Assembly (NCBI GenBank): GCA_963665325.3
Contig: CAXXWS020000004.1
Location: forward strand, 1-64,000
Direction of reading: 5' to 3'
Source of the DNA: Alphaproteobacteria bacterium
GTDB lineage: Bacteria > Pseudomonadota > Alphaproteobacteria > Bin95
Length of the DNA: 64,000 nt
Shown here: in pieces, positions 13,562 through 42,530 of the stretch
Position numbering within the stretch: the stretch's first letter is position 1
Layout of the letters: every line of letters starts with the position of its first letter
The notes under the pieces: generated by a model
Told to the model about the DNA's origin: nothing
The model's database searches: none
The model's input: only the letters and a program-made list of their open reading frames with translations
Program-made: the position numbers and the translations under genes

Positions 13562-13564
13562 GGG

Positions 13565-15817: not shown

Positions 15818-15939
15818 CGCCGCAGCGCGGGCCGCGCCGCAAGGAGCCGGAGGCCGGCGGAGGGCGGGGCGAAGGCGGCGGGGCCGAAGGGAGGCTTCGG
15901 GAATTCTCCTTGCCCGTCCCGGCGGTATGATCGGAGACC

Positions 15940-16305: not shown

Positions 16306-16319
16306 AGGCGTCATTGCCG

Positions 16320-19226: not shown

Positions 19227-19249
19227 ATAAGGTGTCACCCGTTCACGGG

Positions 19250-24838: not shown

Positions 24839-24842
24839 GGGT

Positions 24843-26137: not shown

Positions 26138-26535
26138 CGGACCCCTCCTTGCGGTGCGCCGGTGTCCTCATGCGGTTTCCGTGCAAGGATTTCGGCGAGC
26201 ACATCCTCGACCTGCCGCGTCATGTCCGGCGCTCCGGCGGCGATCGCCCGGGCCGGCAGCAGCACGACGCCATGATCGTGCGCCACCCGGTCGAGAGCAG
26301 TCTCCAGCGCCGCGCCCCAGGCGCGCACCTCCGCCGCCGACCGGCCTTCGCTTGCCGCCCGCGTCGTCCAGGCCGCCGTGATCTGGGCAAGACGGACACT
26401 GCCAATGCGCGGCGGCGGCTCCGGCCCGTAGCCCGGAACGAGGTCCGGGCCAAGCCGCAGCACGGCCGCCGCAACCGCCGCCGCCATGCCGCCGGAGAGC
26501 AGCAGCGCGCAGGCCAGCAGGCGGAGATCACTCAT
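26134..26535 (-). CDS. trbI: F-type TrbI
   Basis: N-terminal TM and HGVVLLPARAIAAGAPDMT; position between traC and trhF. Confidence 0.75.
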   Translation of the reverse strand: MSDLRLLACALLLSGGMAAAVAAAVLRLGPDLVPGYGPEPPPRIGSVRLAQITAAWTTRAASEGRSAAEVRAWGAALETALDRVAHDHGVVLLPARAIAAGAPDMTRQVEDVLAEILARKPHEDTGAPQGGVR

Positions 26536-26774
26536 GCCGGACCTCCCGCCCGACGTATCGGCATGCTCGCATAGGCGCGCGTGTCCCTGTGCTTGAACCG
26601 GGCCGCGCCGTCCCCGTCGTGGAACATGTAGAAGTAATGGCCGGCCCAGTTGCGGGCGCCCGGCTCCACCGACAGCACGCCCGCGGCAACCGCCGCGCGA
26701 AACACCGCCCCGGCATCCTTCTCGACGGTGATGCCGGACAGCACAGGTCGGCGGCGGTCACGATGCGCTTGCAT
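26532..26774 (-). CDS. Small hypothetical protein in the tra operon
   Basis: 80 aa with NWAGHYFYMFHDGDGAARFKHRDTRAY; translationally overlaps its neighbours. Confidence 0.55.
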   Translation of the reverse strand: MQAHRDRRRPVLSGITVEKDAGAVFRAAVAAGVLSVEPGARNWAGHYFYMFHDGDGAARFKHRDTRAYASMPIRRAGGPA

Positions 26775-27438
26775 CGGCCGCTCCTCGATCGCCGCTTTCC
26801 CTGCCGGGCGATTCCCGGTCGCCCGCAAGCGCCCGGAAGCGGGCGAGCCAGGCCTCGGCGGCCTTGTCCGGCATGACCGGACGGATGCGCCGCTTCAGCG
26901 GCGGGAACGCGACGCCGGCGCCCGCGGGGGCATGGTCCATGATGTCCCGGCGCTCGGTCGCGGCCGCCATGCGGGTGACGAACCGGAGGAGTTCGCCATG
27001 ATCCTCTTCCAGCACGGCATCGAGGCCGGCCGCTTCGCGCACCGCGCTCTCGATCCCTGAGGCAAGTCGCCCGGCGCGTCCTGGCCCCCCGGCTCGCGGG
27101 CCGGGACCGGCTCCCCGCGATCCGGGCTCGGCGGCGCGCTGGGAGTCGGGCCAACGCGCCCTGAGCCAGGCCGAAGGTGCGTCCGCGACCAGCGCATGGA
27201 GCGCGAGCGTCCGCCTGTCCTCGTCCGCCAGGCCGTCGAGCGCCGCGATTTCTTCCGACACGACCACCGCATGCGCCGCGACCGAGTGGTACTGCCGGCA
27301 GCAGCCGCCCCGGCGGCAGGTATTGGCCAGCACATGCGCCAGCGCCTCGAAGTCGATATCGGCCGCAGTCACGGTCTCCGGGTCGTCCGGCCAGTTCAGC
27401 GGGCGTCGGGTATCGGCATTCGCGGTTCTTGCCGTCAT
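26758..27438 (-). CDS. YfbR/YfdR-like HD-domain protein with degenerate active site
   Basis: IDFEALAHVLANTCRRGG..YHSVAAHAVVVS matches the family pattern. The expected ALLHDAxEAY reads ALVADAPSAW. Confidence 0.75.
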   Translation of the reverse strand: MTARTANADTRRPLNWPDDPETVTAADIDFEALAHVLANTCRRGGCCRQYHSVAAHAVVVSEEIAALDGLADEDRRTLALHALVADAPSAWLRARWPDSQRAAEPGSRGAGPGPRAGGPGRAGRLASGIESAVREAAGLDAVLEEDHGELLRFVTRMAAATERRDIMDHAPAGAGVAFPPLKRRIRPVMPDKAAEAWLARFRALAGDRESPGRESGDRGAADASAS

Positions 27439-30044
27439 TCGTTGCCTCCCTTCGGTTCGGCGGTTTCGGTATGTCCGGCAGCGGCAGGCGCAACGCTTCC
27501 AGCGGGACGAGCGTCGTCCGCGGAGTGTCCGTCCCCCGCGAGCCGGTCGATGGCCTCGACGGTGGAGAGCCCCTCGGCCTTGAGCGCCTCGACCGCCGCG
27601 AATGCCGGCCCGCGCGAGGAGAACAGCGCCACCGACCAGGCATCGAGCACGAGGCGGGCGACGCGCCAGCCGTCGGGGCCGTGCAGCACCAGCTCGGCAT
27701 AGCGGCCGTCGGCGGTGGTCAGGCTCTTGAGCGCGCGCTCCATGCCGGGATCGCAGTGGATGCGCTTCTCGGACTTGAGCAGCTCGACGGATTCGTCCTT
27801 CTGGGCGAGGAAGATCACCCAGTCCGAGTTCTCCCAGGCCGCCCGCGCGGCCGGGTTGGCGTAATAGTCGTTGACGCTCTGGGTGCCGGTGATGAGGGAG
27901 CCCCGGTACTTGCGCGCGCGTCTCGCGGCGCCTTCGAGGAAGGCCTTGCTGTCCTCGCCGGAGAGCAGGTCCCAGGCCTCGTCGATGACGATCGCCTTCG
28001 CCCTTGTGCGGGGGCCGTGATACATGCGCTGGGTCGCCAGGAAGACCACCAGCATCAGCACCACCGCCTGCACGTCGCCGCGGCCCTTGAGCTCGGCGAG
28101 CTCGAACACCGTCATGGCGTTGTCCAGGTCGGGGACGTTCGAGCCGGCGAAGAGCCGCCCCATGGCGCCGCCCGGGCACCAGGGGCCGAGCGCGGTCGCC
28201 ATGTCCTTCGCGCGCCGGTCGTCCCTCGATTCCAGGTTCTTGCGGACCGTGCCGAGATCGGCGTCGTTGCCGGCCTCGTCCCAGGCAGCCGCGATGGCTT
28301 CGGCGATCAGCGCCGCCTCGATGTCGTCGATCCCGCCCCGGCGCCTCGCCATCCGCCCGATCACGCCCGCGAGCATGGCGAAGCACTCCTCGCGGTAGTC
28401 GCCGTCGCGATTGGCGGTCCCGGCGTCGATCATGGCGAAGGGGTTGAGACAGGCCGGGTCCTTGCCGAAGGCGATGAAGGCGCCGCCGAGAGCCTCGGCG
28501 GTGTGCTGGAACGAGCGCCCGTCGTCGATCACTACCGCCTCGCCGCCGGCCCCGATCAGGCCGGTGACCAGCTCCTGCATCAGCACCGACTTGCCCGAGC
28601 CGGACTTCCCCGTGACGGCGGTGTTGTAGTTGCCCGCCTCGTTGGCGAAAGGCGACCAGCAGGCCGGCTGGCCACGGCGGCCTATGAGAAAGAGCGCGGG
28701 TGGGTTGTCGGGGTTCATCGGCTGTCCCCGCCACTCGCCGTGGATCGGCGCGAGATTGACCGCCGAGGCGGTCAGCAGGGTCTTCATCCGGCCCATGCGT
28801 TCGAGATCGGCGTCGAGCCCGCCGGCCGAGGCCATGGGCAGGCAGGCGAGCCAGGAGGGCAGCTGCATGTAGCGCTCGGCGTTCACCCGCCAGCCCTGGC
28901 CGTGATAGATCGCGCGCACCGCCTGCTCGGCCTCGTCCAGCGCATCGAGCGGCGCATAGACGGCGGCCATGTAGCAGGCGTGGACCAGCCGCTCGCCGTC
29001 CTTGAGCCGTTCGGTGACGGTCTGCCAGTCTCTGGCTTTCTCGGGGAGGCCGGGCAGGTAGCGGGCAATCCCGGTGCCGGCCTGCTGGGTCGCGCGGGCC
29101 GATTTGAGGAACGCCTTCTCGCCCGCCGCCTCGTCGCCTGTCATGACGGTGAGGCAGGTCAGCACCGGGCAGCCGGGTTGGAGGAAGTCGCGGTGGAAGT
29201 CGCCGATCAGCGCGTTGCCGCGCCAGCCCGGCCACACCTCGGGAAAGGCGATGGCGGAGAGCACCCGGACGGCGATGTCCTCGCCGTCGGGGTGATGGAA
29301 GGTGAGCCCCGTGGGATGGACCGTGAGTGCGCGCCCCGGGGCGATGCACTGTTCGTGGAGCGGATCGCGCGGCGCCCAGCGCCGGGGAGGGCGTTCGGTG
29401 CCGCCGTCGCGATACCCGCCGATGTCGGGCGCGGTCAGCTCGGCCGCGAGCGACAGCAGCCCGTCGGGCTCCAGCCGGCGGGTCTGCGCCCCGGCCGAGG
29501 CCAGCGTACCCTCCAGCGCCCGGCGGAACGCGCCGAGCGCGGTCTCCGCGGCCGGGCCGGGCAGGCCGGCGATACAGGCGGTGACGAGCACCCGGTAGTC
29601 CGAGAGGGTGAAGGGCGGTCCGCCCGCATGCAGACGCCGCCAGCCGCCCGGGGCGAGCAGGTTCCGGCGCCCGCTTCCCATGCGGGCGAGCGCGCCGCCG
29701 CGGTGTGCGTCGCTCCCGACGCGCGGCTCGGCCCAGGCGCGCATGGCGGCGCCGAAGCGCGGGCTCGCCCAGTGGATCACCTGGATGGTGCAGCGCTCCG
29801 GCGCGGCGTCGGCCAGCGTGCCCGAAAGCGCCCCCAGCGTCTCGGCGTCGATGCCGGCGAAGGGTGGGAGTTCCAGCACGAAGCCGACGGAGCCCGCGTT
29901 GACATAGAGCTCGCTCGACTCGTCGAAGGCGCGCCAGGGCAGCAGCGCGTGCAGCGCGGCCGGCATCGCCGGCGGCGACCACGGCCCCGGCGCCTCCGGC
30001 CCCTCGAACATCTCCAGCAGCCGTCCGAGCGCTCCGGCCGCCAT
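27435..30044 (-). CDS. traC: F-type VirB4 ATPase TraC
   Basis: Motifs NYNTAVTGKSGSGKS, VIDDGRSF, IVIDEAW and RRARKY. Confidence 0.96.
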   Translation of the reverse strand: MAAGALGRLLEMFEGPEAPGPWSPPAMPAALHALLPWRAFDESSELYVNAGSVGFVLELPPFAGIDAETLGALSGTLADAAPERCTIQVIHWASPRFGAAMRAWAEPRVGSDAHRGGALARMGSGRRNLLAPGGWRRLHAGGPPFTLSDYRVLVTACIAGLPGPAAETALGAFRRALEGTLASAGAQTRRLEPDGLLSLAAELTAPDIGGYRDGGTERPPRRWAPRDPLHEQCIAPGRALTVHPTGLTFHHPDGEDIAVRVLSAIAFPEVWPGWRGNALIGDFHRDFLQPGCPVLTCLTVMTGDEAAGEKAFLKSARATQQAGTGIARYLPGLPEKARDWQTVTERLKDGERLVHACYMAAVYAPLDALDEAEQAVRAIYHGQGWRVNAERYMQLPSWLACLPMASAGGLDADLERMGRMKTLLTASAVNLAPIHGEWRGQPMNPDNPPALFLIGRRGQPACWSPFANEAGNYNTAVTGKSGSGKSVLMQELVTGLIGAGGEAVVIDDGRSFQHTAEALGGAFIAFGKDPACLNPFAMIDAGTANRDGDYREECFAMLAGVIGRMARRRGGIDDIEAALIAEAIAAAWDEAGNDADLGTVRKNLESRDDRRAKDMATALGPWCPGGAMGRLFAGSNVPDLDNAMTVFELAELKGRGDVQAVVLMLVVFLATQRMYHGPRTRAKAIVIDEAWDLLSGEDSKAFLEGAARRARKYRGSLITGTQSVNDYYANPAARAAWENSDWVIFLAQKDESVELLKSEKRIHCDPGMERALKSLTTADGRYAELVLHGPDGWRVARLVLDAWSVALFSSRGPAFAAVEALKAEGLSTVEAIDRLAGDGHSADDARPAGSVAPAAAGHTETAEPKGGNE

Positions 30045-30616
30045 CAGCGGAGCCTCCAGCCGGCGGGCTCCAGCACGATCCGGACATGGGACGCCTCGCG
30101 ATAGACGCCGTCGCCATCGACGAAGGGCGCGATCCAGATGCGCGCCACGACCTCGCCGGTGCGCAGATCGTCGGCTTGCGCGGCGTCATGGCCGGAGGCG
30201 GGACTGGCCGGAAGAGCGGAGGCGGCGGAATCGACCCTTGCCGGTTCGGCACTACCGTCGCCGGGGCGGTCGTCGTCATCGCTGCCGTCGAGCAGCCGCG
30301 CGAGCCAGGAGAACGGATCGAAGCCGCAGTCCGCCTCGCAGGAGCGCGTCTCCATCGTCGGCAGATCGGCGCGTTTGGTTTCCATCTTTCCAGGCAGCAG
30401 CCGGATCGGCTGTCCGGTCGCCCCTGCCCGCATGGAACCCGTCTTCGGCACCGCCGGGTCGGCCGCGGCGACGCTGGCGCAGGACCCGCCCTTCGCCAGC
30501 GGGCACTGCCAGTCCTCGCCGATATGCCCCGACGAGCAGCCCGCGAGCAGCAGGGCTGCCACGGCGGCCGCCGGTATTGCCGTCATGCGCGGTGCGCGGT
30601 TTTTCCCCGCCGTCAT
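30044..30616 (-). CDS. traV: F-type lipoprotein TraV
   Basis: Lipobox LLAGC, WQCP..GSC and RIWIAPFVDGDG. Confidence 0.9.
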   Translation of the reverse strand: MTAGKNRAPRMTAIPAAAVAALLLAGCSSGHIGEDWQCPLAKGGSCASVAAADPAVPKTGSMRAGATGQPIRLLPGKMETKRADLPTMETRSCEADCGFDPFSWLARLLDGSDDDDRPGDGSAEPARVDSAASALPASPASGHDAAQADDLRTGEVVARIWIAPFVDGDGVYREASHVRIVLEPAGWRLR

Positions 30617-30617
30617 G

Positions 30618-31913
30618 TCATTTCCCTTTCTTGCTGGATTGCGGTTTCGGTGCCCGCCCGTCGATGCGGGCGCCTTCGAGGAAGACGAGCGTCACCTTCG
30701 TGCCGGCCTGGAGCTGGATCACCGGCTGGTACTGCTCGGCGCGGCGGATCATGTAGTCGGCAACCTTCTGCCCCGCCGAGGACGCCCCGGCGCCGAGACC
30801 GGCACGGCCGATGTCGCCGAGCCCGGTGTTGGCGACCGCCGCCCCGCCCGCGCCGGTCGCCACCGCCTGGGGCTGGAAGGCCTGCGCCGCGCCCTGGCCG
30901 ACGCCGGAGACCACGCCGGCGAGGAACGCCTTCTCGACCAGCGCGCCCTCGCGGCTCACCACGGGCCCGCGCACGCCGGTCTTGCCCGATCCCGCCACGA
31001 ACCCCGCCACCGGGGTCTCGACCACCGTGCCCGGACGCGGCCCGGCGCAGGTCATGGTCTGGAGCCGCGCATAGACCTTCTCGGAGGAAAGATCGCCATG
31101 GGCCGCTCCGGTGACGGTGCAGCCGTCGATATCGACCTGCATCGCCGCGCCGTCCCCCGAACCCGATGGGGCCGCGGTCCATGCGGGGCCGGTAATGCGC
31201 AGCAGCACGGGACGGGGATCGCCCTGCGACGAGATGCCGGCCGAGGCGTCGACGCCGGCCAGAACCACGGCTTGGGCATGCGCCCCCGCCGGCAGCCAGG
31301 ACCCGACCGGCTTCGCCACCGAATCTGCCACCAGTTCGGGACCGCTGCGGGAATCGTTCAATGAGGATTGCGAACTGCCGTCGAGTTCAAAGGTCTCGAT
31401 CATGCGCACGGGCGCGGCCGGCTGCGTCTGCCCGCCATTACCGGACGACGGCGTCGCGCCCGGCACCCGGAAATACCCGTCATTGCCCTGGCCGCCCTGC
31501 GGGACGGACGATGCGCCGTCCGGCTGTGCCGGCGCCTGAAGCCGGCGTTCGAGATCGGCGATCATGGCCGCCTGCCGGTCGATGACGGTGCGGGCGTCGG
31601 CCGCGTCCTTCTCCAGCCTGGCCCGGAGTTGCGCGTTCTCGTCCCGGACCGTCCGCGCCTCGCGCTCGACCGTATTGAGCCGGGTCTCGAGACCGCCGAG
31701 CCTCGCCTCGGAGCGCCTTGTCCAGACCTTCTCGGCCATGTCGGGCTCGACGATCCCGGCCTCGATGCCGCCGGGCGCGGACGGCGCCTTGCCGCCGCCG
31801 GCGCCCAACCAGAGCGCCACCGCCACCAGCACCGCCGCCGCGACGACCGAGAACAGCAGCAGCTGGCGACGGCGCACCGCGCCGGCATCCGAAGTGTCCT
31901 GCCGCGCGCTCAT
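30618..31913 (-). CDS. traB: F-type TraB (VirB10-like)
   Basis: N-terminal TM and coiled coil; GCTVTGAAHGDLSSEK; AEQYQPVI. Confidence 0.93.
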   Translation of the reverse strand: MSARQDTSDAGAVRRRQLLLFSVVAAAVLVAVALWLGAGGGKAPSAPGGIEAGIVEPDMAEKVWTRRSEARLGGLETRLNTVEREARTVRDENAQLRARLEKDAADARTVIDRQAAMIADLERRLQAPAQPDGASSVPQGGQGNDGYFRVPGATPSSGNGGQTQPAAPVRMIETFELDGSSQSSLNDSRSGPELVADSVAKPVGSWLPAGAHAQAVVLAGVDASAGISSQGDPRPVLLRITGPAWTAAPSGSGDGAAMQVDIDGCTVTGAAHGDLSSEKVYARLQTMTCAGPRPGTVVETPVAGFVAGSGKTGVRGPVVSREGALVEKAFLAGVVSGVGQGAAQAFQPQAVATGAGGAAVANTGLGDIGRAGLGAGASSAGQKVADYMIRRAEQYQPVIQLQAGTKVTLVFLEGARIDGRAPKPQSSKKGK

Positions 31914-32674
31914 CGCGGGTTCTCCATGCGGGCAGTCTCCACGACCGCCACGGCCAGCCGCCCGCCGCTCGGTCCGCTGCCGGGCGCCGCCAGCCAGAGC
32001 GCGGCGAGGCGGCCCGGAGCCAGGCTGTCCCCGATGGTCCCGGCGAGGCCCGCGGGGCCGTCGACGGAAGCAGAGGGGAGGCGGTCCGCTTCCAGCACGA
32101 GCGCCCGGAAGCGCGGGCCCCGCCAGGTCTCGATCAGGGTGAGGCCGGCAACGAACGAACCGCCGCCGGCGAGGATTTCGTAGCCGGGCAGAGGCTGGCG
32201 CCGCGCCACCGCGCGCACCAGCCTGACCAGCGCCGCCACATGGGGCGTGCCCGCGAGCGGGGAAGCGGCAGCCGCCGCATCGCTCGACAGCGCGTCGGCA
32301 TTGCGGATCAGGATCTGCGCCGCGTCGCGCCCGGAGGGCGTCAGCGTCAGCCGGTAGGTGAAGCCCTTCTCCGTGCCGAGGAACAGCGTGACCGGCGATC
32401 CGTCGGCAGGCCCTTCGTCAACGCGCCTCAGCCAGATATCTCCCGTGGCAGCGTCGTGCTCGACCGCGAAGCCGTCCGGCGCGCGCACCACCCTGGCGAT
32501 CCGGTCGCCCAGAAGCGCGATCCGGTTGACCGCCGCCGCCGAGATCTCCGCCGCGAGCTCGGCATGGTCGACCGCCTCCAGAAGCTGCATCGCGGCAGCA
32601 GGCGGGGGCAGGGCGAGCGCGCCCATGACCATGAGGAATGCCGCCGTGAGCACCCGTCGAATGTTCCGTGTCAT
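31910..32674 (-). CDS. traK: F-type TraK (VirB9-like)
   Basis: Signal peptide; EISAAAVNRIAL and VTLFLGTEKGFTY; lies between traE and traB. Confidence 0.85.
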   Translation of the reverse strand: MTRNIRRVLTAAFLMVMGALALPPPAAAMQLLEAVDHAELAAEISAAAVNRIALLGDRIARVVRAPDGFAVEHDAATGDIWLRRVDEGPADGSPVTLFLGTEKGFTYRLTLTPSGRDAAQILIRNADALSSDAAAAASPLAGTPHVAALVRLVRAVARRQPLPGYEILAGGGSFVAGLTLIETWRGPRFRALVLEADRLPSASVDGPAGLAGTIGDSLAPGRLAALWLAAPGSGPSGGRLAVAVVETARMENPR

Positions 32675-33243
32675 TCTCGATCCTCCATCTGTTCGAAGCG
32701 CAGCAGGCCGATGCGCCCGGCCTCGATGCGGAAGGCGAGCCGGTAGCGCCGGTCCTCGCGCGCGGCCTCCTCGCGGCCGATCCAGGTCACCAGCTCGCCC
32801 GCGATCTCCGCCGTAAGACGCGCCGGGTCGGCCTCGATGCTGTCGGGATAGAACGCGCTGGCCAGATCGCGCCCGGCCATGCGGGACGCCTCGGTCTCGA
32901 CCCAGGCGCCGATCGCGCCGCGGGCGGAGGCGTGGCTCATCCGCGCCGCCGCCAGCCGCACATGGGCCGCGTTCTCCGGGGTCAGGGTGAGCAGCGTCAC
33001 CGCCACCGTGCGCGCCATGTCTTCCAGATAGCGGGCGCCGGCGGGACCCATGCCCGCGCCGCCGCTGCCGAGTTCCCATGCCGGACCCGCCGTTGCCGGG
33101 AGCAGCACGGTCACGGTCTCGCGCCCGGCGAAGCCCAGGGTCAGCGTCAGGTTGGCGGTCATCGACAGGACCAGCAGCCCGGCAAGCGCCAGGCGGATGT
33201 CCCGCACCCGGCGGACGGCAAGATCGAGGTCCGGACGCCGCAT
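32671..33243 (-). CDS. traE: F-type TraE
   Basis: N-terminal TM; YLEDMARTVAVTLLTLTPEN; synteny. Confidence 0.88.
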   Translation of the reverse strand: MRRPDLDLAVRRVRDIRLALAGLLVLSMTANLTLTLGFAGRETVTVLLPATAGPAWELGSGGAGMGPAGARYLEDMARTVAVTLLTLTPENAAHVRLAAARMSHASARGAIGAWVETEASRMAGRDLASAFYPDSIEADPARLTAEIAGELVTWIGREEAAREDRRYRLAFRIEAGRIGLLRFEQMEDRE

Positions 33244-33253
33244 CCTTCCCGCC

Positions 33254-33547
33254 TCAGCCGGCGAAGCGCCGGAGATGGCTCGGCGGCGTCGCCTTGAGAC
33301 GCAGCACGAAGTCCGGCAGGAACCAGTAGAGGGCGTAGCGCGCGATGTTGGCCCCGCCGCCGCGCTTGACCCGGCGCAGCGCGAGCCAGCCGCCGATGCC
33401 CGCGACCAGCCCGGTCACGAACTGGTTGGCGGCCAATCCGAGCAGGGCCGGGCCCATCAGCGCGGCGGCCTCGTCGACGGTCCAGAACAGCCAGCGCTCC
33501 GGGTCGTCGAGACGCCGGGGGATGGTGTGGCGGGCGGTGTCGTTCAT
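33254..33547 (-). CDS. traL: F-type TraL
   Basis: Motifs IPRRLDDPERWLFWTVDE and LYWFLP. Confidence 0.93.
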   Translation of the reverse strand: MNDTARHTIPRRLDDPERWLFWTVDEAAALMGPALLGLAANQFVTGLVAGIGGWLALRRVKRGGGANIARYALYWFLPDFVLRLKATPPSHLRRFAG

Positions 33548-33558
33548 CGGACGATCCC

Positions 33559-33906
33559 TCAGACGATCGCCGTGCCGACCAGGCCGGTGACGATGCCGGT
33601 GCCGGCGCCCGCGGCGATGCCGACGCCGACCGCGCCCATCAGCTGCATGGCGTTGAAGCGCAGCACCGAGCCGACCAGCGCGGCGCCGACGGCAAGCGCC
33701 GCCGCGAGCTGCCCGCCGCTGCCGCCGACGATGTCCTGCACCGTGTCGAGCGGGGCGTCGAAGGTCGTGTCCGTGGTCGCCAGCGCGATCTCCGGTCCCG
33801 CCAGCACGGCCGCCGCGGCGAGCGCCATGACCGCGACCCCGCGCGTCGCGGCATTCGAACCGCTCATGCCGCCGCCGCCGGGAATCGAATTCGCCGCCGC
33901 GCTCAT
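33559..33906 (-). CDS. traA: Conjugative pilin
   Basis: Signal peptide followed by two hydrophobic helices; first tra gene before traL. Start may be ~33867. Confidence 0.8.
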   Translation of the reverse strand: MSAAANSIPGGGGMSGSNAATRGVAVMALAAAAVLAGPEIALATTDTTFDAPLDTVQDIVGGSGGQLAAALAVGAALVGSVLRFNAMQLMGAVGVGIAAGAGTGIVTGLVGTAIV

Positions 33907-34235
33907 CGGGACGCCCCCGGATCGTTGGTTTCGGCCTGCCTCTTCCCCCGCTTACGGCCCGCCTTCCCGGATCTCGGGCCGGGAGAGGGGGAGCCGGGGG
34001 CGTCCGGGGCCGGCAGCGCCGGGCGTTCGCCGGTGCCGTCGTCCGAGGTCGACTTGCGCCGCCGCGTCCTGGCCCATTCGTCCAGGTCCTCGCGCAGATA
34101 GCGCACCCGCCCGCCGAAGCGCAGGAACACCGGCCCCTCGCCCGACACCCGGTAGCGGTCCAGCGTGCGCGTCGACAGCCCGAGATGGAGCGCCGCCTCG
34201 CGCGTCGTCAGATAGATCGTCCCCCTGTCCGTCAT
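33903..34235 (-). CDS. Excisionase/recombination directionality factor (HTH_17, RdfS-like)
   Basis: YLTTREAALHLGLSTRTLDRYRVSGEGPVFLRFGGRVRYLREDLDEWA; strong AAGGAGG RBS; heads the tra operon. Confidence 0.88.
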   Translation of the reverse strand: MTDRGTIYLTTREAALHLGLSTRTLDRYRVSGEGPVFLRFGGRVRYLREDLDEWARTRRRKSTSDDGTGERPALPAPDAPGSPSPGPRSGKAGRKRGKRQAETNDPGASR

Positions 34236-35079: not shown

Positions 35080-35786
35080 CTACGCCCCGGCGGCCATGTC
35101 GCGGTACCGCTTCAGGATGCGCCTTGCCGAGGCGAAGCGGCGCTTGACGCGCTCATGCATCCAGCTGCCGGTGTAGTAGTCTTCCTCGACCTTCTTCGGC
35201 TTCCAGAAGCGCAGCGCGTAGTCGCGCTGCGTGAGTCCTTCGGCCTCCATCTCCAGCGCCAGCAGAAGCTCACCGTCCCCGTCCCCCGTGCCCGCCCCGG
35301 TCGAGGGGCCGGGAACCCCGACCAGACGTCCTCGATGCGCGCCACCTCGCGCTCCAGCACGAGACGCAGCCCGCCGTCATCGGGAAACACCGTACCGGCC
35401 GGCAGACGGACCGGGACCGACACGCCCGGCCGCTCGATCCTGAGCAGCAGCGCGCCGTCGGCGAGACGCAGCCCGGAGAGCGTGGCGTCTCCCTCGGCGG
35501 CAAGCCGCACCAGCGGCGGCGTATCCCGCGTCACCCGTCCCTCGACCACGCCGGCCCGGGCCCAGAAGGGCGCGAGCGGCAGCGCCGCATGGGGATCCTC
35601 CCACGCCGCCATGCCCCAGGACATGGCGGCGAGGTCGGCCGGGGTCTGGAGCCGCACCGGGAACGGTGCGCGTTCCGGCAGCCCGGGCTGCGGCCGGCGC
35701 CGCTTCCATGCATTGCGATACGCCTTGCTCGCGCGGATGAAGCGCCAGGCGCGCAAGGCATCCCATCCGCCGACCCGCCGCGCCAC
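35080..35786 (-). CDS. FseA-like transcriptional activator (DUF6499 + DUF2285), split by a -1 frameshift near 35280
   Basis: N-terminal AWRFIRASKAY and WGMAAWEDP resemble Msi172-type motifs. The C-terminal HTH-like segment ELLLALEMEAEGLTQRDYALRFW...RVKRRFASARRILKRYRDM lies in the -1 frame, open from 35376 to 35080. Confidence 0.65.
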
Positions 35787-35902
35787 GGTCAGCCGCTCCC
35801 GGATCGGGTCCGGGACAGGCTGCCGCCGGGCGCCGCCGCCGGACCGGAGGCCGTGTCGGCCGGTCTCCGGTCCGGGGCGCAGTCATCGGCCCATGCCATG
35901 GC

Positions 35903-38900
35903 TCACCAACGCGCGGTAATCTCGACCCCGACCGTGTGTTCCGGCGCCTGCGCGTCGCTCTCCCTGCGGGTTGCCCTGAGGCCGAAGGAGAAGTCGGGCG
36001 CGTTGGCTTCCGGCGTCAGCCGCCAGCCGACGCTGTAGTCGCGCGCGCCCGTCGCAAGCCCCAGGCCCACATGCGGGCTGCCGGTCCAGCGCCCGCCGAA
36101 GGCCGGGAAGCCGTACGCGGCTTCGGCCGCCCAGCGGCTCGCCGCCACGCCGCCCGTGCGATCCTCCAGCGTCGCCGGCTGGAACAGCGCGTCCAGCCCG
36201 CCGCTGGCCTGACCGCCGAACTCCTGGCGCAGGCTCAGCGACGGACCCCGCTGCGTCCCCGGAGCGGGATCGAAGGCGAGCGAGGCCGCATAGCCCCGGT
36301 CCTTCAGGTCGTCGTTCTCGTGCGCCAGCAGCGTGCGGCCCGAGACGTCGAGCGAGAGACCGAGCGCCGGGTCGCTCCACGCGATCCCGCCGCCGAGCTC
36401 GACCCCGAAGCCGGTCTCGGCATCGCCGCCGTCATGGCGCGCGCCGATCTCCAGCTTCGGCACCAGAGACCCGCCGCCCTCCATCGCGAACCGCCAGCTG
36501 CCCTCCAGCCCGAGCCTGAGCCGGGTCGCGTCGGAGTCCGAGGCCGCGAGGTCGCGGGTCTTCTCAGACGAGGTCCGCGTCCACAGGGCGTCCGAAGTGA
36601 GCGCCAGCGCCGGGCCGCCGCCTTCCGCGGGGGGCGCCAGCAGGTCGCCCCTGAGCCCCGCCGCCGCCATGCTCCAGGCGGTGTCGGAGCTGTAGCTGTC
36701 GCCCAGCGCGGTCTTCAGCGTCACCTCGCCCGTGCCGTAGCCCGCCGCGCCCCAGAGCTTCAGGCGCTCCGAGGCCTGCAACGCCGCATAGGGGATCGCC
36801 GCCGTCAGCGACGCCTCCACCTTGCCGTCGCCCGCGCGCACGGCGCCGCCGCACAGTTCGGCGTCCACGCCGTCGGGACAGGTCTGGCCGTCGGGACGGG
36901 GACTGACCCCGGTGTCGCGGTAGTCGCCCTCGCCCGCGCTCTGCGCGAGCGCCAGGCCGACCAGCCACTTGCCGCGCGCATAGTCCGCGCCGAGCATGCC
37001 CGTGGTGACCGTGCCGTCGAGCGAGAACGTCCCCTCGCGGCCGTCGAAGCTCCCCTGCGACGCCCGGCCCCAGAACGCCAGGCTGCCGCCCGAGCCGTCC
37101 GCCGCGCCGGTCAGCGAGAAACTCGATCCGAGCAGCGCGTCGCGCGCCGTCATCGACCGCGATTGCGCCAGGGACGCGCCGGCACGGGCGTCGCCGAACC
37201 GGTCGCCCGCGCCGCCCGGCGATACCGCGGCGGGCGCATCCGCACCGAAGCCGCGCGCGATGTCGGCCATGGCCAGCGCCGTATCGCGGTCCGCCGGCGT
37301 TGCGCCGGGCGTTGCGCCCGCTGCCGGCCGGCCGGCGGCGGGGTCGAAGTTGAGCGCCTGCCCGGCAACCGTGCCCTGCATGCCGGGCGTGCGCGGGGCC
37401 GCCATGCGCCCCGCGATGCCGTCCAGCGCCTGCTCCGCCACCGTGCGCCCGAAGCGCGCCAGGAACGCCGCCGGCAGCGGGTCGTCGTTCACGATCGTCC
37501 CCACCGCCACGCCGTCCGCGATCGGCACCACCGTCGCCTCCGTCAGCACGAACTCGAACGTCTCCGGGTCCTCGTCATGGCTGTCGTCGTAGACCCAGAC
37601 CCACACCCGCTTCTCGGTCTCGCCCGGCTGGAAGTAGAGATGCCAGCCGGCGGCAAGGTAGTCCCGGCCCTGCCGCGCCGACACCGGGCTCGACTCCCGG
37701 GTCCGGTACGACACCCGCACCGCCCGCTCCGACGGCGCGCTCAGCCGGAGCGTGAACCACATCAGCCCCGCGCCTTCCTTCACCGTCGCGTCGTCCACCG
37801 AGAGCGACGCCCCGGTGGCCGCCGCGTCGTTGTCGGCCACCGCGACCGAGGCCGTATCCCCCGGAGACGCCGCCACCGTGTAGCCCGCGCCGGCATCCAC
37901 CGCCGCGCTCACCGAGCCGTCGGGCTCGTCCGCCGCGTCGTCGTCCGTCGCCACGGTGAGCGCAACCCCGGTCGTGCCGGCCGGGATGGTCACCGTGCGA
38001 CCGCCCTCGTCGCCCGCGGCCACGAAGTCGCTGCCCGCTTCCTCCGAGACCGTGAGCCGCACCGCAAGCGCCGCATCCGGCGCCCGGTCCGCCGTCACCG
38101 TGAACACCGCGCCCGCCCCCTCGGTAATGGAGCCGGCCTTCGCCGTCACCGAGACCACCGGCGGCGGCAGGTCGTCGTCCGTCACGGCGACGGCGCCCGA
38201 TGCCGGGGAACCGACCGTGTAGCCGTCGCCGCCGTTCAGGGTCACGCTCACCGAGCCGTCCGGCTCGTCCGTACCGTCATCGACCGTCGCCAGGGTCAGC
38301 ACGAGGCTGCCGCTCGTCGGAACGGTCACCGTCCGCGCGCCGGCGGCAATGCCGAAGTCGCCCTCGGCGCCAACCGTCACCTCGACCGCCAGCGGCGATG
38401 CCGGGGCCGGCGCCGCCGTGAGCGTGAACACCGCGCCGCCGCCTTCGGAGACCGCCTCCCCGGCCGCGACGCTCACCGCCGGCGGGATTACGGGCTGCGG
38501 CTCCGGCTCGGGCGCCGCTTCCAGCGCCGCGATCGCCACGACCACCGGGTCCCAGCGTGTCCAGCCCCGGTCGGCATAGGTCCGCGCCTCCGCCGCCGTC
38601 ATCGGCGCACGGCCGTTGTCTTCGCCGAAAGCCGCGAGCACGCGCATCCAGCGTTCCACATGCGCCGCGCCGTTATGGGTCTCCGCCGCGTAGCTCCTGA
38701 CCAGCGCAACCAGCGCCGGGTCCACCGCCGGTGCGGCCTGCTGCGTCGCGGCCTGCTGCGGCGCGGGGTCGCTCCCCGCCGCCCCGATCGCCCCGATCGC
38801 CTCCGCGATCCGGGGCCAGAGCGGGCTGCTGTAGCGACGGGCATTCGCCTCGGCTTGCGCCGCCGTCATCGCCGTCACGCCCGGATACGCCTCCACCCCG

Positions 38901-41900
38901 AACGCCACCAGCACCCGCCGCCAGCGCAGGACATGCGCCGCGCCGTTATGGGTCTGCCCCGCAAGTATTCTGACCTGCGCCACCAGCGACGGGTCCAGCG
39001 CCGGCGCGTCGTCGTCGAGCAGGGCCACGGTGACCGTCGACGGCGTGCCCGCCGTGTAGCCGTCGCCCGGCTTGATCCGGGCCACCACCGTGCCGTCGGC
39101 GCGCTGCTTGTCGTCCGACCAGGTCGTGACCGTCCAGGCCGCCGAGGTCGCGCCCGCCGGGATCGTCACCGTGCGGGCCCGTTCGAGCCCGATATAGTCC
39201 AGGCCCGCGCCCATCTCCTCCGACGCGCCCAGGTGCACCGGGAGGTCGTAGCCCGGCGCCGGGGCGGCCGTGACCGTGAAGGTCACCTCGCCGCCCTCCG
39301 TCACCGAAGCCGCATCGGCGCCGAGCGTCAGCGTCGAGGGCGTGGCCAGCATCTGCGCCCGCGTGTTGTCGTCTATGTTCGTGACCGGGTCCGCGTCCTG
39401 GACCGTGAGCGTCAGCTTGCCCGTGCTGGTCGCATAGTCCCTGCCGCCCAGCAGGATGACCTCCACCTTGCTGTCGCCATCGAGGTCGGGGCTCGCCACG
39501 GTCGGTATGTGAATGACCGTAGCGGAATGCCCGGCCCCGATCTCGATGCTCCGGGGGTTGGGGTCCCGATCCCGCTTCGGATCCGTGAGGCTCGGCCCCC
39601 GGACCACACGCTCGCCGTGGTAGTCGGCGAGGTAGTAGTTCACGATGACCGGAGTGGCCAGCCTGAACCAGGGATCCATCTTCACCCGGAGGTTGAACGC
39701 ACCCCCCTCCGTGACGGTATGCGGGGTCGGGGAAACCACGTTGCCGGGATTGGTGCCGACAACCGCTTCGAGGCTGACGAACGGCAGGGGCGACCTGTCG
39801 TCGAGCGCGATGACGGCCGTCCTGGTCCTGCTGGTGTCGGTCGAATCCTCGAACGTCACCGTGAGGCTTTCGTTCTCGGCCACGCCGTCGGCCACCACGG
39901 TCAGCGTCAGCCTGTACGCGACGCCGTCCCAATGCCCCCGGGTGCGGGTGCCGTCGGCCAGGCCGACGCAGACATCGAGGTTGTTACCAGAGTTGGACAG
40001 CCCGTCAGTCACATGGTCGCACCTGAGCGACGTCGTGGCGCCGGCAAGGGACCTTATCCGGGGCGCGCCCCAGCTGGACGGAAAACCGGTGACGGTGACA
40101 AAGCTGACACCCCCCTCGCGTACCGTGGACGGCCTGGCGGCGAGCGAAGCCGCGACGCCGTCGTTCACGACCACGGTGAAAGCGTTGGCCGTGCCATGCG
40201 GGTCCGCGCCGCCGCCCACATCGGTGCCGAGCGCGGCGGCGTCGAAGGCGGTGTTCGAGCCGAGCGCGATGGTGAAGGTCTCCGCGCCCTCCGTCGTGCC
40301 TTCATTCGCCGGCGTCAGCTCCAGCGTCGCCGTCCGCGCGCCCGCACCGGAAAAGCGCACCTTCGGGGCCGCCGTGCCGACATCGCGCAGGCCGACGCCC
40401 GTGTTGGCCGCACCGGACTTCGCCGCCAGGCTCCAGTCGCCGGTGGTCACCCCTGTGCCGGAGATCGACAGCGGCACGTCGATCGTCTCGCCCACCACCA
40501 GCGCGCGGCCCAGCGTCACCGTGAACTCGACCTGGCCGCCCTCGGTCACCGCGCCGCTGCCCACGCGGGCAAGGCTTGCGACCGTCGGGTCGTCGTCGCG
40601 GATGGTGACCGTGTCGCTCACGTTGATCGGGGCGACCCCGGCAGGACGTGCAGTGTTCGGGTCGTCGGTGACAGTTATCGTCACCACTTCGTCCGGCTCG
40701 TCGGTGGAGTCGGGTGTCCCCCATACGGTGAATGAGAAGGCAGAAAAGCCACTAGATATGTCGCTGTCTAAACAGCCGTTCGTCAAAGTGATTGGGACGA
40801 CGCCGCTCCTGACGCTGAAACTCGGACTGGTGAAGGAACTGGAAAAGCAGGCCCGGAATGGAACATGGGACGTCTGAATCGCGGACAATGTCACAGCCTC
40901 TATAACAACGTTAGTGCCCTGCTCATCGGCATAGCCGCCCGGCAGCGGGCTTCCCCCGGAAACGATCGACACCGTTGCGTCCGGCGGCGCCGCCACCGTG
41001 AATACCGGGGAGAGGCCGAACAAATGTCGGGTAAAAGAGGGGGGGGTAGTGCCAGCAGATATCGGATCAGCACCACTCTGAACGACGCCATTTCTAATCG
41101 CGGCGCTGTGGCCGAAATGCGCGTTATGCTTGGTGCCGTCGGTGTTGCTGCCCGTAAACACAGAAACGTTGCCCGAAAGGCCACCTCCGCTCTCGAGCTT
41201 CACGCTGTAACTGTCCCAGGTTCCGTCGTAGAAGTCGGCGTAGTTGTCGGCGAGCTTGCTGCCGGTCAGCCAGTAGATGGGGACGCCCGTGCCGGTGGTC
41301 CCGGTGTTGTCGCGGGCATCGACGGCGGAGGTCGAGCCGACGACGGTGAAGCGGTTGCCGCAGCTGTCGGTGATCGCGCTGTGGCCGGCCTTGGCGCGGG
41401 TCTGCACGTACGTGTTGTAGGTGGCGATGTCGGTCGCCGAGCCGTCGCGTTGGGTGGAGGTCACGAACAGCAACCGGAACTGGGCCCCGGCGGCGAGCCC
41501 CGAGGGCTTCAGCGCCCAGTCGTTCGGCACCGGGTACGAGCCGTCGGTATTGGCCGTCGTGCATTCGACCGCCGTTTGCGCGGCGGCCCCGGTCGGAAGG
41601 CCCGCCAGGAGCGGCAGGGCGAGCAGAGCGGCGGCAAGGGCGGGACGCAGGCCGCGCCGCAGGCGAAGGGCCGCAGAAGATCCGAAACTACCGGAGGAAG
41701 AAGCGGGCCGGCGGGACGAACCACCCCCGCCGGCGGAACGAGAAGACTCAGGCGGGGAGGACGGACGACCCGGCCGGCGCAGCCATGCGGGCGCCTTCAT
41801 GGCCGGCATGCGGACGCAGCAAGCGCGACCCGGCGACCCGGCGACCCGGCGACCCGGCGACCCGGCGACCCGGCGACCCGGCGACCCGGCGACCCGGCGA

Positions 41901-42220
41901 CCCGGCGACCCGGCGACCCGGCGACCCGGCGACCCGGCGACCCGGCGACCCGGCGACCCGGCGACCCGGCGACCCGGCGACCCGGCGACCCGGCGACCCG
42001 GCGACCCGGCGACCCGGCGACCCGCGACCCGGCGACCCGGCGACCCGGCGACCCGGCGACCCGGCGACCCGGCGACCCGGCGACCCGGCGATCCGGCGAT
42101 TATAGCGGGAATCTCAGGGATAAGCAGGAACGGATTTGTCAACCCCGAAACGCGGATGACGCGGATGGTGTCGACGGGCGCCATCAGCGCCGCCCGGATC
42201 CTGCCCGTAAATCCCGTCAT
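35903..42220 (-). CDS. Giant surface adhesin/autotransporter-like protein (lectin-like domain, Calx-beta repeats, C-terminal beta-barrel)
   Basis: Signal peptide ALAAALLALPLLAGLPTGAAAQ; repeated EG...F.V...DD..DE.DG motifs; C-terminal beta-strands ending GVEITARW. ATG 42220 has a GGAG RBS; alternative start ~41810. Confidence 0.85.
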   Translation of the reverse strand: MTGFTGRIRAALMAPVDTIRVIRVSGLTNPFLLIPEIPAIIAGSPGRRVAGSPGRRVAGSPGRRVAGRRVAGSPGRRVAGSPGRRVAGSPGRRVAGSPGRRVAGSPGRRVAGSPGRRVAGSPGRRVAGSPGRACCVRMPAMKAPAWLRRPGRPSSPPESSRSAGGGGSSRRPASSSGSFGSSAALRLRRGLRPALAAALLALPLLAGLPTGAAAQTAVECTTANTDGSYPVPNDWALKPSGLAAGAQFRLLFVTSTQRDGSATDIATYNTYVQTRAKAGHSAITDSCGNRFTVVGSTSAVDARDNTGTTGTGVPIYWLTGSKLADNYADFYDGTWDSYSVKLESGGGLSGNVSVFTGSNTDGTKHNAHFGHSAAIRNGVVQSGADPISAGTTPPSFTRHLFGLSPVFTVAAPPDATVSIVSGGSPLPGGYADEQGTNVVIEAVTLSAIQTSHVPFRACFSSSFTSPSFSVRSGVVPITLTNGCLDSDISSGFSAFSFTVWGTPDSTDEPDEVVTITVTDDPNTARPAGVAPINVSDTVTIRDDDPTVASLARVGSGAVTEGGQVEFTVTLGRALVVGETIDVPLSISGTGVTTGDWSLAAKSGAANTGVGLRDVGTAAPKVRFSGAGARTATLELTPANEGTTEGAETFTIALGSNTAFDAAALGTDVGGGADPHGTANAFTVVVNDGVAASLAARPSTVREGGVSFVTVTGFPSSWGAPRIRSLAGATTSLRCDHVTDGLSNSGNNLDVCVGLADGTRTRGHWDGVAYRLTLTVVADGVAENESLTVTFEDSTDTSRTRTAVIALDDRSPLPFVSLEAVVGTNPGNVVSPTPHTVTEGGAFNLRVKMDPWFRLATPVIVNYYLADYHGERVVRGPSLTDPKRDRDPNPRSIEIGAGHSATVIHIPTVASPDLDGDSKVEVILLGGRDYATSTGKLTLTVQDADPVTNIDDNTRAQMLATPSTLTLGADAASVTEGGEVTFTVTAAPAPGYDLPVHLGASEEMGAGLDYIGLERARTVTIPAGATSAAWTVTTWSDDKQRADGTVVARIKPGDGYTAGTPSTVTVALLDDDAPALDPSLVAQVRILAGQTHNGAAHVLRWRRVLVAFGVEAYPGVTAMTAAQAEANARRYSSPLWPRIAEAIGAIGAAGSDPAPQQAATQQAAPAVDPALVALVRSYAAETHNGAAHVERWMRVLAAFGEDNGRAPMTAAEARTYADRGWTRWDPVVVAIAALEAAPEPEPQPVIPPAVSVAAGEAVSEGGGAVFTLTAAPAPASPLAVEVTVGAEGDFGIAAGARTVTVPTSGSLVLTLATVDDGTDEPDGSVSVTLNGGDGYTVGSPASGAVAVTDDDLPPPVVSVTAKAGSITEGAGAVFTVTADRAPDAALAVRLTVSEEAGSDFVAAGDEGGRTVTIPAGTTGVALTVATDDDAADEPDGSVSAAVDAGAGYTVAASPGDTASVAVADNDAAATGASLSVDDATVKEGAGLMWFTLRLSAPSERAVRVSYRTRESSPVSARQGRDYLAAGWHLYFQPGETEKRVWVWVYDDSHDEDPETFEFVLTEATVVPIADGVAVGTIVNDDPLPAAFLARFGRTVAEQALDGIAGRMAAPRTPGMQGTVAGQALNFDPAAGRPAAGATPGATPADRDTALAMADIARGFGADAPAAVSPGGAGDRFGDARAGASLAQSRSMTARDALLGSSFSLTGAADGSGGSLAFWGRASQGSFDGREGTFSLDGTVTTGMLGADYARGKWLVGLALAQSAGEGDYRDTGVSPRPDGQTCPDGVDAELCGGAVRAGDGKVEASLTAAIPYAALQASERLKLWGAAGYGTGEVTLKTALGDSYSSDTAWSMAAAGLRGDLLAPPAEGGGPALALTSDALWTRTSSEKTRDLAASDSDATRLRLGLEGSWRFAMEGGGSLVPKLEIGARHDGGDAETGFGVELGGGIAWSDPALGLSLDVSGRTLLAHENDDLKDRGYAASLAFDPAPGTQRGPSLSLRQEFGGQASGGLDALFQPATLEDRTGGVAASRWAAEAAYGFPAFGGRWTGSPHVGLGLATGARDYSVGWRLTPEANAPDFSFGLRATRRESDAQAPEHTVGVEITARW
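41825..42100. repeat. Simple sequence repeat, ~34 x 8-bp unit GCGACCCG
   Basis: 25 perfect units, one 7-nt unit (42025-42031), 7 perfect units and one GCGATCCG variant. Confidence 0.97.
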
Positions 42221-42530
42221 GACCTGCTCCAATCCCTTGACCGCGATGCACACGCCGCCGAAGCGTAAAGCCCTCCGGGAAGTGTGCCCGATAACCTCCC
42301 GTGACCCATAACAAAATTACCGCCGCAGGGAAAGGGCGATTCGATTCGGCCGCCACGCAGTACTTCGCCGGCGGATCCGCGGAACCGATGCGGCGGGGCA
42401 TGGGGTATGGGCCGCCGCATCTTGCATGAGGAGACGCGGCGATGGCGGTTTCGATCCGAACCGTGGTGGAGCGGCATGCAACCCGGCGCGTGGCGTCGTC
42501 GCCTGCGTGGCGAGCGCGCACACGCTCAAC

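Follow-up and report, generated by a model that had tools for sequence, protein, structure and literature searches.

A putative slipped-strand repeat switch at the 5' end of a giant autotransporter gene directly upstream of an FseA-like activator in a predicted conjugative element

The locus described here belongs to an uncultured alphaproteobacterium (GTDB lineage Pseudomonadota; Alphaproteobacteria; Bin95), and the stretch that was analyzed, hereafter the window, comprises the initial 64 kb of contig C5 in its genome (G000; 5.58 Mb in five contigs; NCBI GenBank assembly GCA_963665325.3, contig CAXXWS020000004.1, positions 1 to 64,000). All genes from 42253 down to 10013 lie on the minus strand. 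They begin with a giant adhesin gene, whose 5' end carries a long array of octamers, a simple sequence repeat (SSR), and continue with an FseA-like activator gene encoded in two frames, an excisionase-type gene (xis), and a block of transfer (tra) genes ending in a NikA-like open reading frame (ORF) (Table 1). With integrase, relaxase, coupling, and mating-pair genes in one block, the element is, on its gene content, an integrative conjugative element (ICE) with an F-type type IV secretion system. An earlier model-generated reading of this DNA, made from the sequence alone (the original prediction), had viewed the array as a candidate phase-variable switch placed directly upstream of the transfer activator.

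Table 1. Features of the adhesin-activator region and the adjoining transfer genes, in window coordinates
Feature	Position	Strand	Basis or remark
Shine-Dalgarno GGAG (42230-42227) and leader start ATG (42220-42218)	42218..42230	-	Read from sequence
Leader peptide ORF MTGFTGRIRAALMAPVDTIRVIRVSGLTNPFLLIPEIPAII, continuing into the array	42100..42220	-	Open frame
TTGACA (42142-42137) and TATAAT (42104-42099), 32 nt apart, TATAAT abutting the array	42099..42142	-	Within the leader
Octamer SSR, sense unit GTCGCCGG	41825..42099	-	34.5 units including one of 7 nt; read as (AGSPGRRV)n, 91 residues
Post-array junction, main frame ACCVRMPAMKAPAWLRR	41751..41824	-	Motif kept in paralogues
Ser/Pro/Arg-rich linker, then signal-peptide-like n/h/c region (LRLRRGLRPALAAALLALPLLAGLPTGAAA/Q)	41579..41750	-	Translation, by eye
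Endostatin-fold passenger head	40940..41542	-	AlphaFold2 mean pLDDT 92.6; Foldseek
Passenger with LapA-type and Calx-beta domains	37100..40939	-	Pfam PF03160, E 2.1e-15; PF20579, E 4.1e-8
Autotransporter beta-domain and stop codon (35905-35903), C terminus ...EITARW	35903..37099	-	PF03797
Adhesin-to-FseA gap	35787..35902	-	116 nt; bridging ORF, two hairpins
FseA-like gene in two frames: N part from GTG 35786 to ~35331 (AWRFIRASKAYRNAW motif); C part (DUF2285) 35376-35083 in the -1 frame, stop 35082-35080	35080..35786	-	
Excisionase-type HTH_17 gene, first of the xis-tra block	33903..34235	-	PF12728, E 2.8e-12; TIGR01764, E 1.2e-5
Co-directional transfer genes	10013..33906	-	Pfam scans

Tandem Repeats Finder resolves the array into 34.5 copies of a period-8 unit (98% matches, score 536), in agreement with the approximately 34 copies originally counted; its length of 275 nucleotides (nt) leaves a remainder of 2 on division by three. 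It consists of two perfect runs, 41825-42024 and 42024-42091, which are joined at the 7-nt unit near 42024, and a GATCGCCG-type unit comes first. The frame from ATG 42220 (or from GTG 42253) stays open across the whole tract, the 7-nt unit included, as far as the stop codon at 35903-35905, and encodes 2,116 amino acids (aa), which bears out the roughly 2,100-aa adhesin of the original prediction. Its further claim, that a change of one or two units would break the frame, also holds, because both other frames stop soon after the array: the +1 frame ends 25 nt past it, in a TGA that overlaps ATG 41800 (ATGA), and the +2 frame ends 74 nt past it, so that loss or gain of 8 or 16 nt leads out of the adhesin. 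The array is far beyond chance; perfect period-8 arrays of at least four copies occur only six times in the 5.58-Mb genome, and the gene context is the same for all six. The idea of a G-quadruplex on the sense strand, with a GGG every 8 nt, was dropped, the interchangeable GATCGCCG units having GG only.

The six octamer arrays of the source genome comprise 14-38 units of GGTCGCCG or GATCGCCG and share their surroundings. Each follows a leader of 25-50 codons that opens with an ATG preceded by GGAG or GGAGG; a TTGACA and a TATAAT mostly lie just 5' of the array; and a conserved motif follows it, with, in turn, a Ser/Pro/Arg-rich stretch, a signal peptide, and an autotransporter of 1,650-1,970 aa, which in one copy ends prematurely after 105 residues. 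Despite their differing sequences and lengths, the six leaders all enter the array in one reading frame (...AGSPGRR or ...AGSPDRR). Among related loci, L056, L064, L066, L067, L069, and L082 have no main-frame ATG, GTG, or TTG between array and signal peptide, and the sole post-array start of L075 is a TTG within the h-region. All seven keep main ORFs intact over 5.3-6.2 kb, and with no usable start after the array, their proteins would therefore be made only from the leader ATG. The leader frame also carries a coding periodicity, with a G+C fraction at the three codon positions of 0.58/0.58/0.88 in the window and 0.60/0.55/0.74 in the pooled relatives (1,169 codons), and the leader peptides share a loose common pattern, M-T-x-F/T-x-x-x-R-x-x-L/I-R-A-L. 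Taking together the common leader frame, the seven relatives devoid of a later start, the periodicity, and the lack of any triplet period, we conclude from comparative sequence evidence that the array is located in a translated region between a start codon and a functional protein. It is thus quite probable, in our judgment, that the adhesin undergoes translational slipped-strand phase variation.

The original prediction envisaged a simple on/off switch, and array length does set the frame; nevertheless, where a post-array ATG exists, the switch may have three states, namely translation as a fused precursor, re-initiation from the internal ATG, and an off state. Both in the window (at 41800) and in the paralogue at G000 C1:576867, one out-of-frame reading ends in a TGA overlapping the main-frame ATG, and in other paralogues the corresponding TGA lies 5 nt 5' of that ATG. 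No Shine-Dalgarno sequence precedes ATG 41800.

That array length changes on an evolutionary time scale is evident from the comparison of near-identical loci, in keeping with the original expectation of variable repeat number. The clearest case is that of G000 C1:576867 and locus L032 of G011, another species of the genus, in which 300-nt flanks are 100% identical on both sides of arrays of 118 and 174 nt, i.e., seven units apart. The same upstream leader sequence is likewise followed by differing arrays in two loci of the source genome (14.75 and 38 units), in L037 and L033 (13.2 and 10 units), and in L064 and L067 (29.6 and 13.6 units). The leader flank of the window resembles those of L031 and L035 (99%), while its post-array flank matches L033 (100%), which has another leader and 10 units. 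The two flanks thus match different loci, and leaders and adhesin alleles therefore appear to be reshuffled at the arrays. Of the 35 arrays having both flanks, eight put leader and main ORF in one frame: two of six in the source genome, one of five in G011, none of one in G001, and five of 23 at other loci (the ambiguous L061 was left out, and L047, whose sequence equals that of L036, was counted once). Two structural observations concern individual copies. In the source genome, an array with the first 105 codons (C1:452788-453365) lies about 55 kb from a barrel remnant (C1:507565-508758) that is itself still 5' of an FseA-like gene and xis-tra, a separation which may have arisen by insertion or rearrangement within the gene. 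Contig C2 starts 9 nt 5' of the post-array motif, and the assembly therefore broke at an array.

The hexamers beside the arrays are a further conserved feature. TTGACA is present in 30 of 36 unique leaders and TA[TC]AAT in 25 of 36, the latter mostly ending within 2 nt of the array. Their codons are rare ones, with TTG accounting for 3% of Leu, ACA for 2.8% of Thr, and ATA for 10.7% of Ile codons in five window genes, and TATAAT occurs genome-wide at 0.016 per kb per strand; this conservation of rare-codon hexamers points to selection on the DNA itself. The spacer between them is 20 nt in 10 leaders, 23 nt in nine, and 19, 27, 29, or 32 nt in one each (the window has 32), and it is never 16-18 nt. 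On account of these spacers (20, 23, and 32 nt), the pair was rejected as an ordinary sigma-70 promoter, and our promoter scan does not accept the pair of the window. An internal promoter with a nonstandard spacer is an obvious candidate for their role. A second class of leaders has the palindrome TTGATTAAnATCAA in place of the hexamers.

Arrays of this kind extend beyond the source genome. A five-unit array pattern was found in six of the 16 other species of the genus that were searched, in draft genomes at contig ends (G010 C8 and C168, G007 C158, G015 C334), but not in two other genera of the family (20 genomes) and in none of 24 other families of the class. Using an alignment of the barrel domain, we also retrieved 79 related loci from metagenome-assembled genomes (L037-L115, 52-95% identity), 49 of which have at least 7 kb of upstream sequence. 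A perfect nontriplet array lies 2.7-7.4 kb 5' of the barrel, i.e., at the 5' end of the gene, in 25 of the 79. Scanning periods 1-15 upstream of the barrels gave 27 perfect arrays in all, 20 with a period of 8, three each with 5 and 7, and one with 4; none had a period of 3, 6, 9, or 12. The units include octamers of several sequences, the pentamers GCCGA (40 copies), AGCCG, and AGCCA, the heptamers AGCCAAG, AGCGCCG, and GCCGGAC, and the tetramer GCAA. We therefore appear to be dealing with a large, horizontally spread autotransporter family with convergent 4-, 5-, 7-, and 8-nt switches. The record titles of the 79 loci name many phyla, among them Alpha- and Gammaproteobacteria, Nitrospirales, Acidobacteria, Binatia, and Gemmatimonadota, which reflects either wide horizontal spread or errors of binning or labeling; several are bins from sponge studies, and the sequencing runs that contain the stretch of the window carry a sponge metagenome label. 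Three heptamer arrays were also observed in the source genome: AGAGCCG (14.3 copies, C1:1337013-1337112, minus strand) heads another autotransporter ORF of 9.2 kb, GCGCCGT (22.9 copies, C1:1244758-1244917, plus strand) follows a TTGACG-N20-TATAAT and has no long ORF behind it, and a third (C3:709149-709276) has no clear gene.

The adhesin itself appears to have the architecture of a classical autotransporter. Past the array, approximately 190 residues from ATG 42220, lies a signal-peptide-like stretch, ...LRRGLRPALAAALLALPLLAGLPTGAAA/Q (AAA/Q), as judged by eye. The passenger head drew no Pfam match (window 40940-41542); the five best Foldseek matches of its predicted structure are all endostatins, from collagens XVIII and XV (E 4.5e-6 to 1.7e-5, template modeling scores 0.6-0.7). 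This domain is present in more than 1,374 database proteins, often as three to five tandem copies beside fibronectin-III, cadherin, and Calx-beta domains, and would thus constitute an endostatin-fold domain, undetected by Pfam, that is common among proteins of sponge-associated metagenomes. Matches of the head to PPR repeats in phmmer searches are spurious, resting on a short TYNT..AKAG motif. The beta-domain was missed when the entire 2,116-aa protein was scanned against Pfam and was found when the C-terminal 398 aa were scanned alone (PF03797, E 1.8e-10, 41.4 bits against a cutoff of 26; terminal residue W); a phmmer search of the barrel against PDB sequences returned nothing meaningful. On this domain order, the adhesin is predicted to be a type Va (classical) autotransporter. 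The database gene call begins at ATG 41800 and gives 1,965 aa, which reflects the habit of gene finders and is not evidence for the start site. The original prediction had concluded that only adhesive cells would become donors; this is only one reading, because the head is endostatin-like and of a host-matrix type.

The gene behind the adhesin had been predicted to be FseA-like and to be followed by xis-tra, and both parts of that claim are supported. A profile built from eleven C pieces, the DUF2285 parts, matches RovC (PDB 6xz5; E 1.2e-10), and PF10074 matches seven of 11 relatives' C pieces (best E 2.4e-11), the copy of the window itself falling below the cutoff (E 0.023). The N part contains LRAWRFIRASKAYRNAW, which by eye resembles AWEFLRRN; Pfam and NCBIfam found nothing in the N part of the window, and PF20109 (DUF6499) reached only E 0.4-0.5 in two of nine N pieces, the window copy being without a match. 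Membership in the FseA family is hence supported for the DNA-binding domain and for the genomic position. Third-position G+C follows one frame from GTG 35786 to about 35350 and then the -1 frame. This split recurs at the same place in all paralogues (G000 C1:508878-509581, C1:582432-, C3:1025881-, C4:47135-, C2:6052-) and in 10 of 11 relatives (L037-L078), the remaining one, L055, having a single frame that contains an internal deletion and a stop. The frame changes past the middle domain and ahead of DUF2285, by -1 (+2) in the window, copies E1, E2, and E4 of the source genome, and nine of 11 relatives, and by +1 in E5, E7, and L066. On visual inspection, no start codon in the C pieces would give a complete domain; together with the preservation of the split, this implies a programmed frameshift. 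No canonical -1 slippery heptamer was found by eye at the frame change, nor was the published +1 frameshift site after DUF6499 encountered in the FseA-like genes studied here. That site, which follows a DUF6499 with AWEFLRRN, is given for about 61% of 4,709 homologues in the available part of the FseA family report (PMC10359603). FseA-like genes can thus, it would seem, be split at a second, noncanonical frameshift position, and homologues split there may already be contained in the homologue database of that report.

The junction of adhesin and activator is tight, its 116 nt from adhesin stop to GTG 35786 agreeing with the roughly 115 bp originally given. It is occupied by a 36-codon bridging ORF that runs from ATG 35899, 3 nt past the adhesin stop, to a TGA at 35791-35789, 2 nt before GTG 35786; by eye, bridging ORFs starting M-A/V-R/W-A-D-D are seen also in the copies at L039, G000 C1:582k, C3:1025k, and L037. 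Two hairpins (35875-35839 and 35822-35790) give the gap a folding energy of -84.9 kcal/mol against a shuffle mean of -66.7 (z -4.7), and a GGGAG, 9 nt before GTG 35786, lies within the 3' arm of the second. The original prediction had noted no obvious terminator; this stands as regards T-tract terminators, of which there are none in window 34800-36300, although the two strong hairpins had been overlooked. The same interval has no sigma-70-like match either. A scan covering the last 400 nt of the adhesin and 200 nt downstream found a sigma-70-like pair (at least 9 of 12 positions) in none of 19 linked loci and none of four source-genome copies, as compared with four of 57 unlinked loci. In relatives, the gap is mostly 17-27 nt and devoid of GGAG, GAGG, or AGGA (about 12 distinct gaps, counted by eye), whereas such a motif precedes 13 of 21 ATG-start ORFs of the window. 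Conserved linkage of repeat, adhesin, and FseA-like gene in related elements had been set beforehand as a test of the original prediction, and the result does not refute it: the FseA-like N part begins within 200 nt of the barrel end in six of the seven barrel copies of the subfamily in the source genome, and likewise in 19 of the 79 related loci (by profile hidden Markov model, four of them weakly, E 7e-5 to 6e-4). It lies about 5 kb from the barrel in two more and is missing from the others. Transfer genes are found within 10 kb in only three of the 79, and the adhesin-FseA junction is therefore more constant than what lies beyond it.

In the window, 844 nt separate the stop of the FseA-like gene from the excisionase-type gene. 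This interval (34236-35079), which has no convincing ORF and holds several palindromes, e.g., at 34329-34361 and 34457-34493, is a candidate for the promoter/operator region of xis-tra. The transfer genes beyond are, in order, a pilin-like ORF, TraL, a TraE-like gene, TraK, TraB, TraV, TraC, an S26 peptidase, SSB, TraU, TraN, TraH, a TrwB-type coupling protein, a TrwC relaxase, and the NikA-like gene, and two adjacent tyrosine integrases are located at 37-2636. On the other side, homology to the other copies ends between about 42.4 and 44.4 kb, and transporter and metabolic genes occupy the region beyond about 46 kb. Window positions 1-4000 are 99.98% identical to G000 C3:5518-9516, and the contig therefore starts inside a repeat. 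Six adhesin-FseA-xis-TraL/E/K/B/V modules are present in the source genome (on C5, C3, C4, and C2, and twice on C1), in addition to a seventh tra set, at C4:850-853 kb, that has no adhesin module. The 99-100% identity of segments with loci of G011 is suggestive of recent transfer. A megablast search of window 33000-36500 against PLSDB plasmids gave no match.

Combining these observations, we propose that the octamer array is a slipped-strand contingency switch in the 5' end of the adhesin gene, itself the first gene of a co-directional transfer cluster of about 32 kb, and that it also modulates the supply of the FseA-like activator. From the leader ATG, the ribosome would translate (AGSPGRRV)n and reach the signal peptide and passenger only with an array length that preserves the frame, and gain or loss of units would place it in one of the two other frames. 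One of these, ending in the ATGA overlap, might permit re-initiation at ATG 41800; the other, ending beyond 41800, would be off. Expression of the activator would depend on transcription and translation arriving from the adhesin, and would additionally require the ribosomal frameshift. Such dependence on the adhesin is most likely because neither a promoter nor a terminator match was found, because the gaps in relatives are tight and lack a Shine-Dalgarno sequence, and because the window has a bridging ORF and a hairpin that would sequester the Shine-Dalgarno sequence. The link would be termination-reinitiation between the two genes and, upon an early stop of the leader ORF, Rho polarity along some 6 kb of RNA left untranslated. 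Rho polarity is established for enteric bacteria and postulated here. Polarity was the only link in the original prediction; the bridging ORF and hairpins argue for translational coupling no less strongly. What we infer from these genomic patterns is that switching is reversible within a population, that the two genes are co-transcribed and coupled, and that excision and transfer may be affected. Because its core is the switch, we regard the combined reading as somewhat probable; the gating of the activator, taken by itself, we put forward tentatively, as a possibility that falls short of being probable. In the most far-reaching version, the repeat would be a heritable yet reversible master stochastic gate of transfer competence, such that only cells with a productive array frame translate the 6-kb adhesin gene to its end and thereby bring ribosomes and transcript to the frameshift-dependent activator, with the six copies flipping independently between silent and donor-capable, the donor state tied to display of the endostatin-like adhesin, and the hexamers serving as a second layer of control; this we consider rather unlikely.

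Several points weigh against the proposed model, and some of them lend themselves to other explanations of the array. It is unusual for a signal-peptide h-region to be preceded by an N-terminal extension of some 190 residues, and the conserved TTGACA...TATAAT at the array suggests a DNA-level signal that the model does not use. The conservation of these near-perfect, rare-codon hexamers in a 67% G+C genome would be accounted for if they were a real promoter and the array acted at the transcript level, as in the HMW adhesins of Haemophilus, with the transcript starting in the first units, the array forming a 5' untranslated region that tunes expression gradually, and translation beginning at ATG 41800. 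A post-array ATG exists in all six source-genome loci and several relatives, the database gene call starts at that codon, and SSRs between promoter and start codon have precedent in the available portions of two reports (PMC12721329, PMC8262952). Nevertheless, we deem a transcript-level array improbable, as it is contradicted by spacers that are never of standard length and fail the promoter scan, by the relatives that have no post-array start codon, by unit periods that are never multiples of three, by a leader frame with coding periodicity and a conserved peptide pattern, and by the missing Shine-Dalgarno sequence at ATG 41800. A different concern is that eight of 35 loci in frame is also what chance would give were the frame irrelevant, and that five of the 27 out-of-frame loci (G000 C1:452788, L032, L034, L039, and L114) also show truncation of the main ORF and may just be in decay. 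Extended to the whole family, this would make the arrays hypermutable, recombination-prone DNA without a regulatory role and most out-of-frame copies decaying pseudogenes, for which the reshuffling of leader and adhesin combinations at the arrays and the breaking of assemblies there could also be cited. That the out-of-frame loci retain intact ORFs of 5-8 kb, that at least eight different unit sequences, none of them triplet, occupy the same position family-wide, and that both alternative frames stop just past the array make this explanation very improbable.

The remaining objections concern the activator rather than the adhesin. The two gap hairpins could act as a terminator or insulator and not as a coupling device, and the GGGAG before GTG 35786 makes independent initiation possible. 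Furthermore, the promoter scans were consensus-based, and a promoter inside the 3' end of the adhesin could escape them; and about 60 of the 79 family loci lack a downstream FseA-like gene, so that there is no general tie between the adhesin family and the activator. All of these would be understandable if the array switched the adhesin only, and the FseA-like gene had a promoter of its own in the adhesin 3' end or the gap, the adjacency then reflecting shared ancestry of an ICE-end module. It also agrees with this that the FseA of ICEMlSymR7A is, in the available part of its description, under quorum sensing and not under a surface-protein gene (PMC10359603). We consider such a separation of the two genes unlikely in view of the short gaps without Shine-Dalgarno sequences in relatives, the absence of a promoter-like match from all 19 linked loci, and the retention of the adjacency while adhesin alleles, leaders, and the distance to xis-tra vary.

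Repeat-slippage phase variation is textbook knowledge for the surface proteins of pathogens but has little documentation in animal symbionts that are uncultured. The closest parallel to the proposed switch is offered by the Opa proteins of Neisseria, which have CTCTT repeats in the region coding for the leader peptide. In both cases a nontriplet SSR is translated ahead of the mature protein, several paralogues have frame states of their own and are mostly off, and loci recombine with one another. The present arrays differ in having an 8-nt unit (4, 5, or 7 nt in relatives) in 7-50 copies, in lying upstream of the h-region within a ~190-residue extension with a conserved leader peptide, and in belonging to a 2,000-aa autotransporter whose loci head conjugative elements in an uncultured host from sponge metagenomes. 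Operon-level control by an SSR is known from lic1 of Haemophilus influenzae, where CAAT repeats in the first gene, licA, set the expression of the downstream genes; the same is only proposed for the present locus, and while the lic1 genes serve the same pathway, the downstream gene here would be the master activator of a mobile element. Among autotransporters, the available parts of several accounts describe SSR switching of Lav (GCAA), NalP/MspA (homopolymers), and AutB of Haemophilus and Neisseria (PMC9022572, PMC3723659, PMC5118866). These too are of type Va, have an intragenic repeat whose length turns them on or off, and are mostly off in isolates; as there described, however, they are chromosomal genes of pathogens that are not linked to a transfer regulator and have no conserved promoter-like element at the tract. 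HMW1A and HMW2A of H. influenzae have 7-bp repeats between promoter and start codon (PMC12721329, PMC8262952), and, as far as those accounts were available, resemble the present locus in having a long nontriplet array directly past promoter-type hexamers and ahead of a giant adhesin. They differ in that their array is untranslated and exerts graded control, whereas the evidence here favors translation through the array.

For the activator, the parallel is FseA of ICEMlSymR7A (msi172/msi171), which the available part of its report presents as a DUF6499-DUF2285 activator of the excisionase gene rdfS (PMC10359603). On that account, shared features are the C-terminal DUF2285, a helix near the N terminus that by eye is AWEFLRRN-like, coding in two frames, and a location on an ICE ahead of an HTH excisionase gene; in both cases, transcription apparently reads through from the upstream gene. 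In contrast to the conserved +1 change after DUF6499 there, the frame changes here between the middle and DUF2285 domains, mostly by -1; the upstream gene is an SSR-switched adhesin instead of traI2, and the secretion system is of the F type. Phase-variable loci are known as cargo of ICEs from the open-access literature, including the available part of a 2025 review (PMC11868660). Our search of that literature, including the same part of the review, found no repeat switch that controls an element's own transfer or lies upstream of a transfer activator, and likewise no matching paper on SSR phase variation in sponge symbionts or on sponge symbionts and endostatin, which is not proof of absence. 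Set beside these systems, the SSR contingency locus and the FseA-type control of an ICE are each of a known kind, and what is unusual is their wiring, the conserved DNA element at the edge of the array, and the noncanonical frameshift site. The candidate switch is the first feature of the transfer cluster, has been retained in several copies of the element and in several species, and stands directly before a member of a family of ICE-excision activators; if the coupling is true, it would provide a simple genetic account of why only a subpopulation becomes donors.

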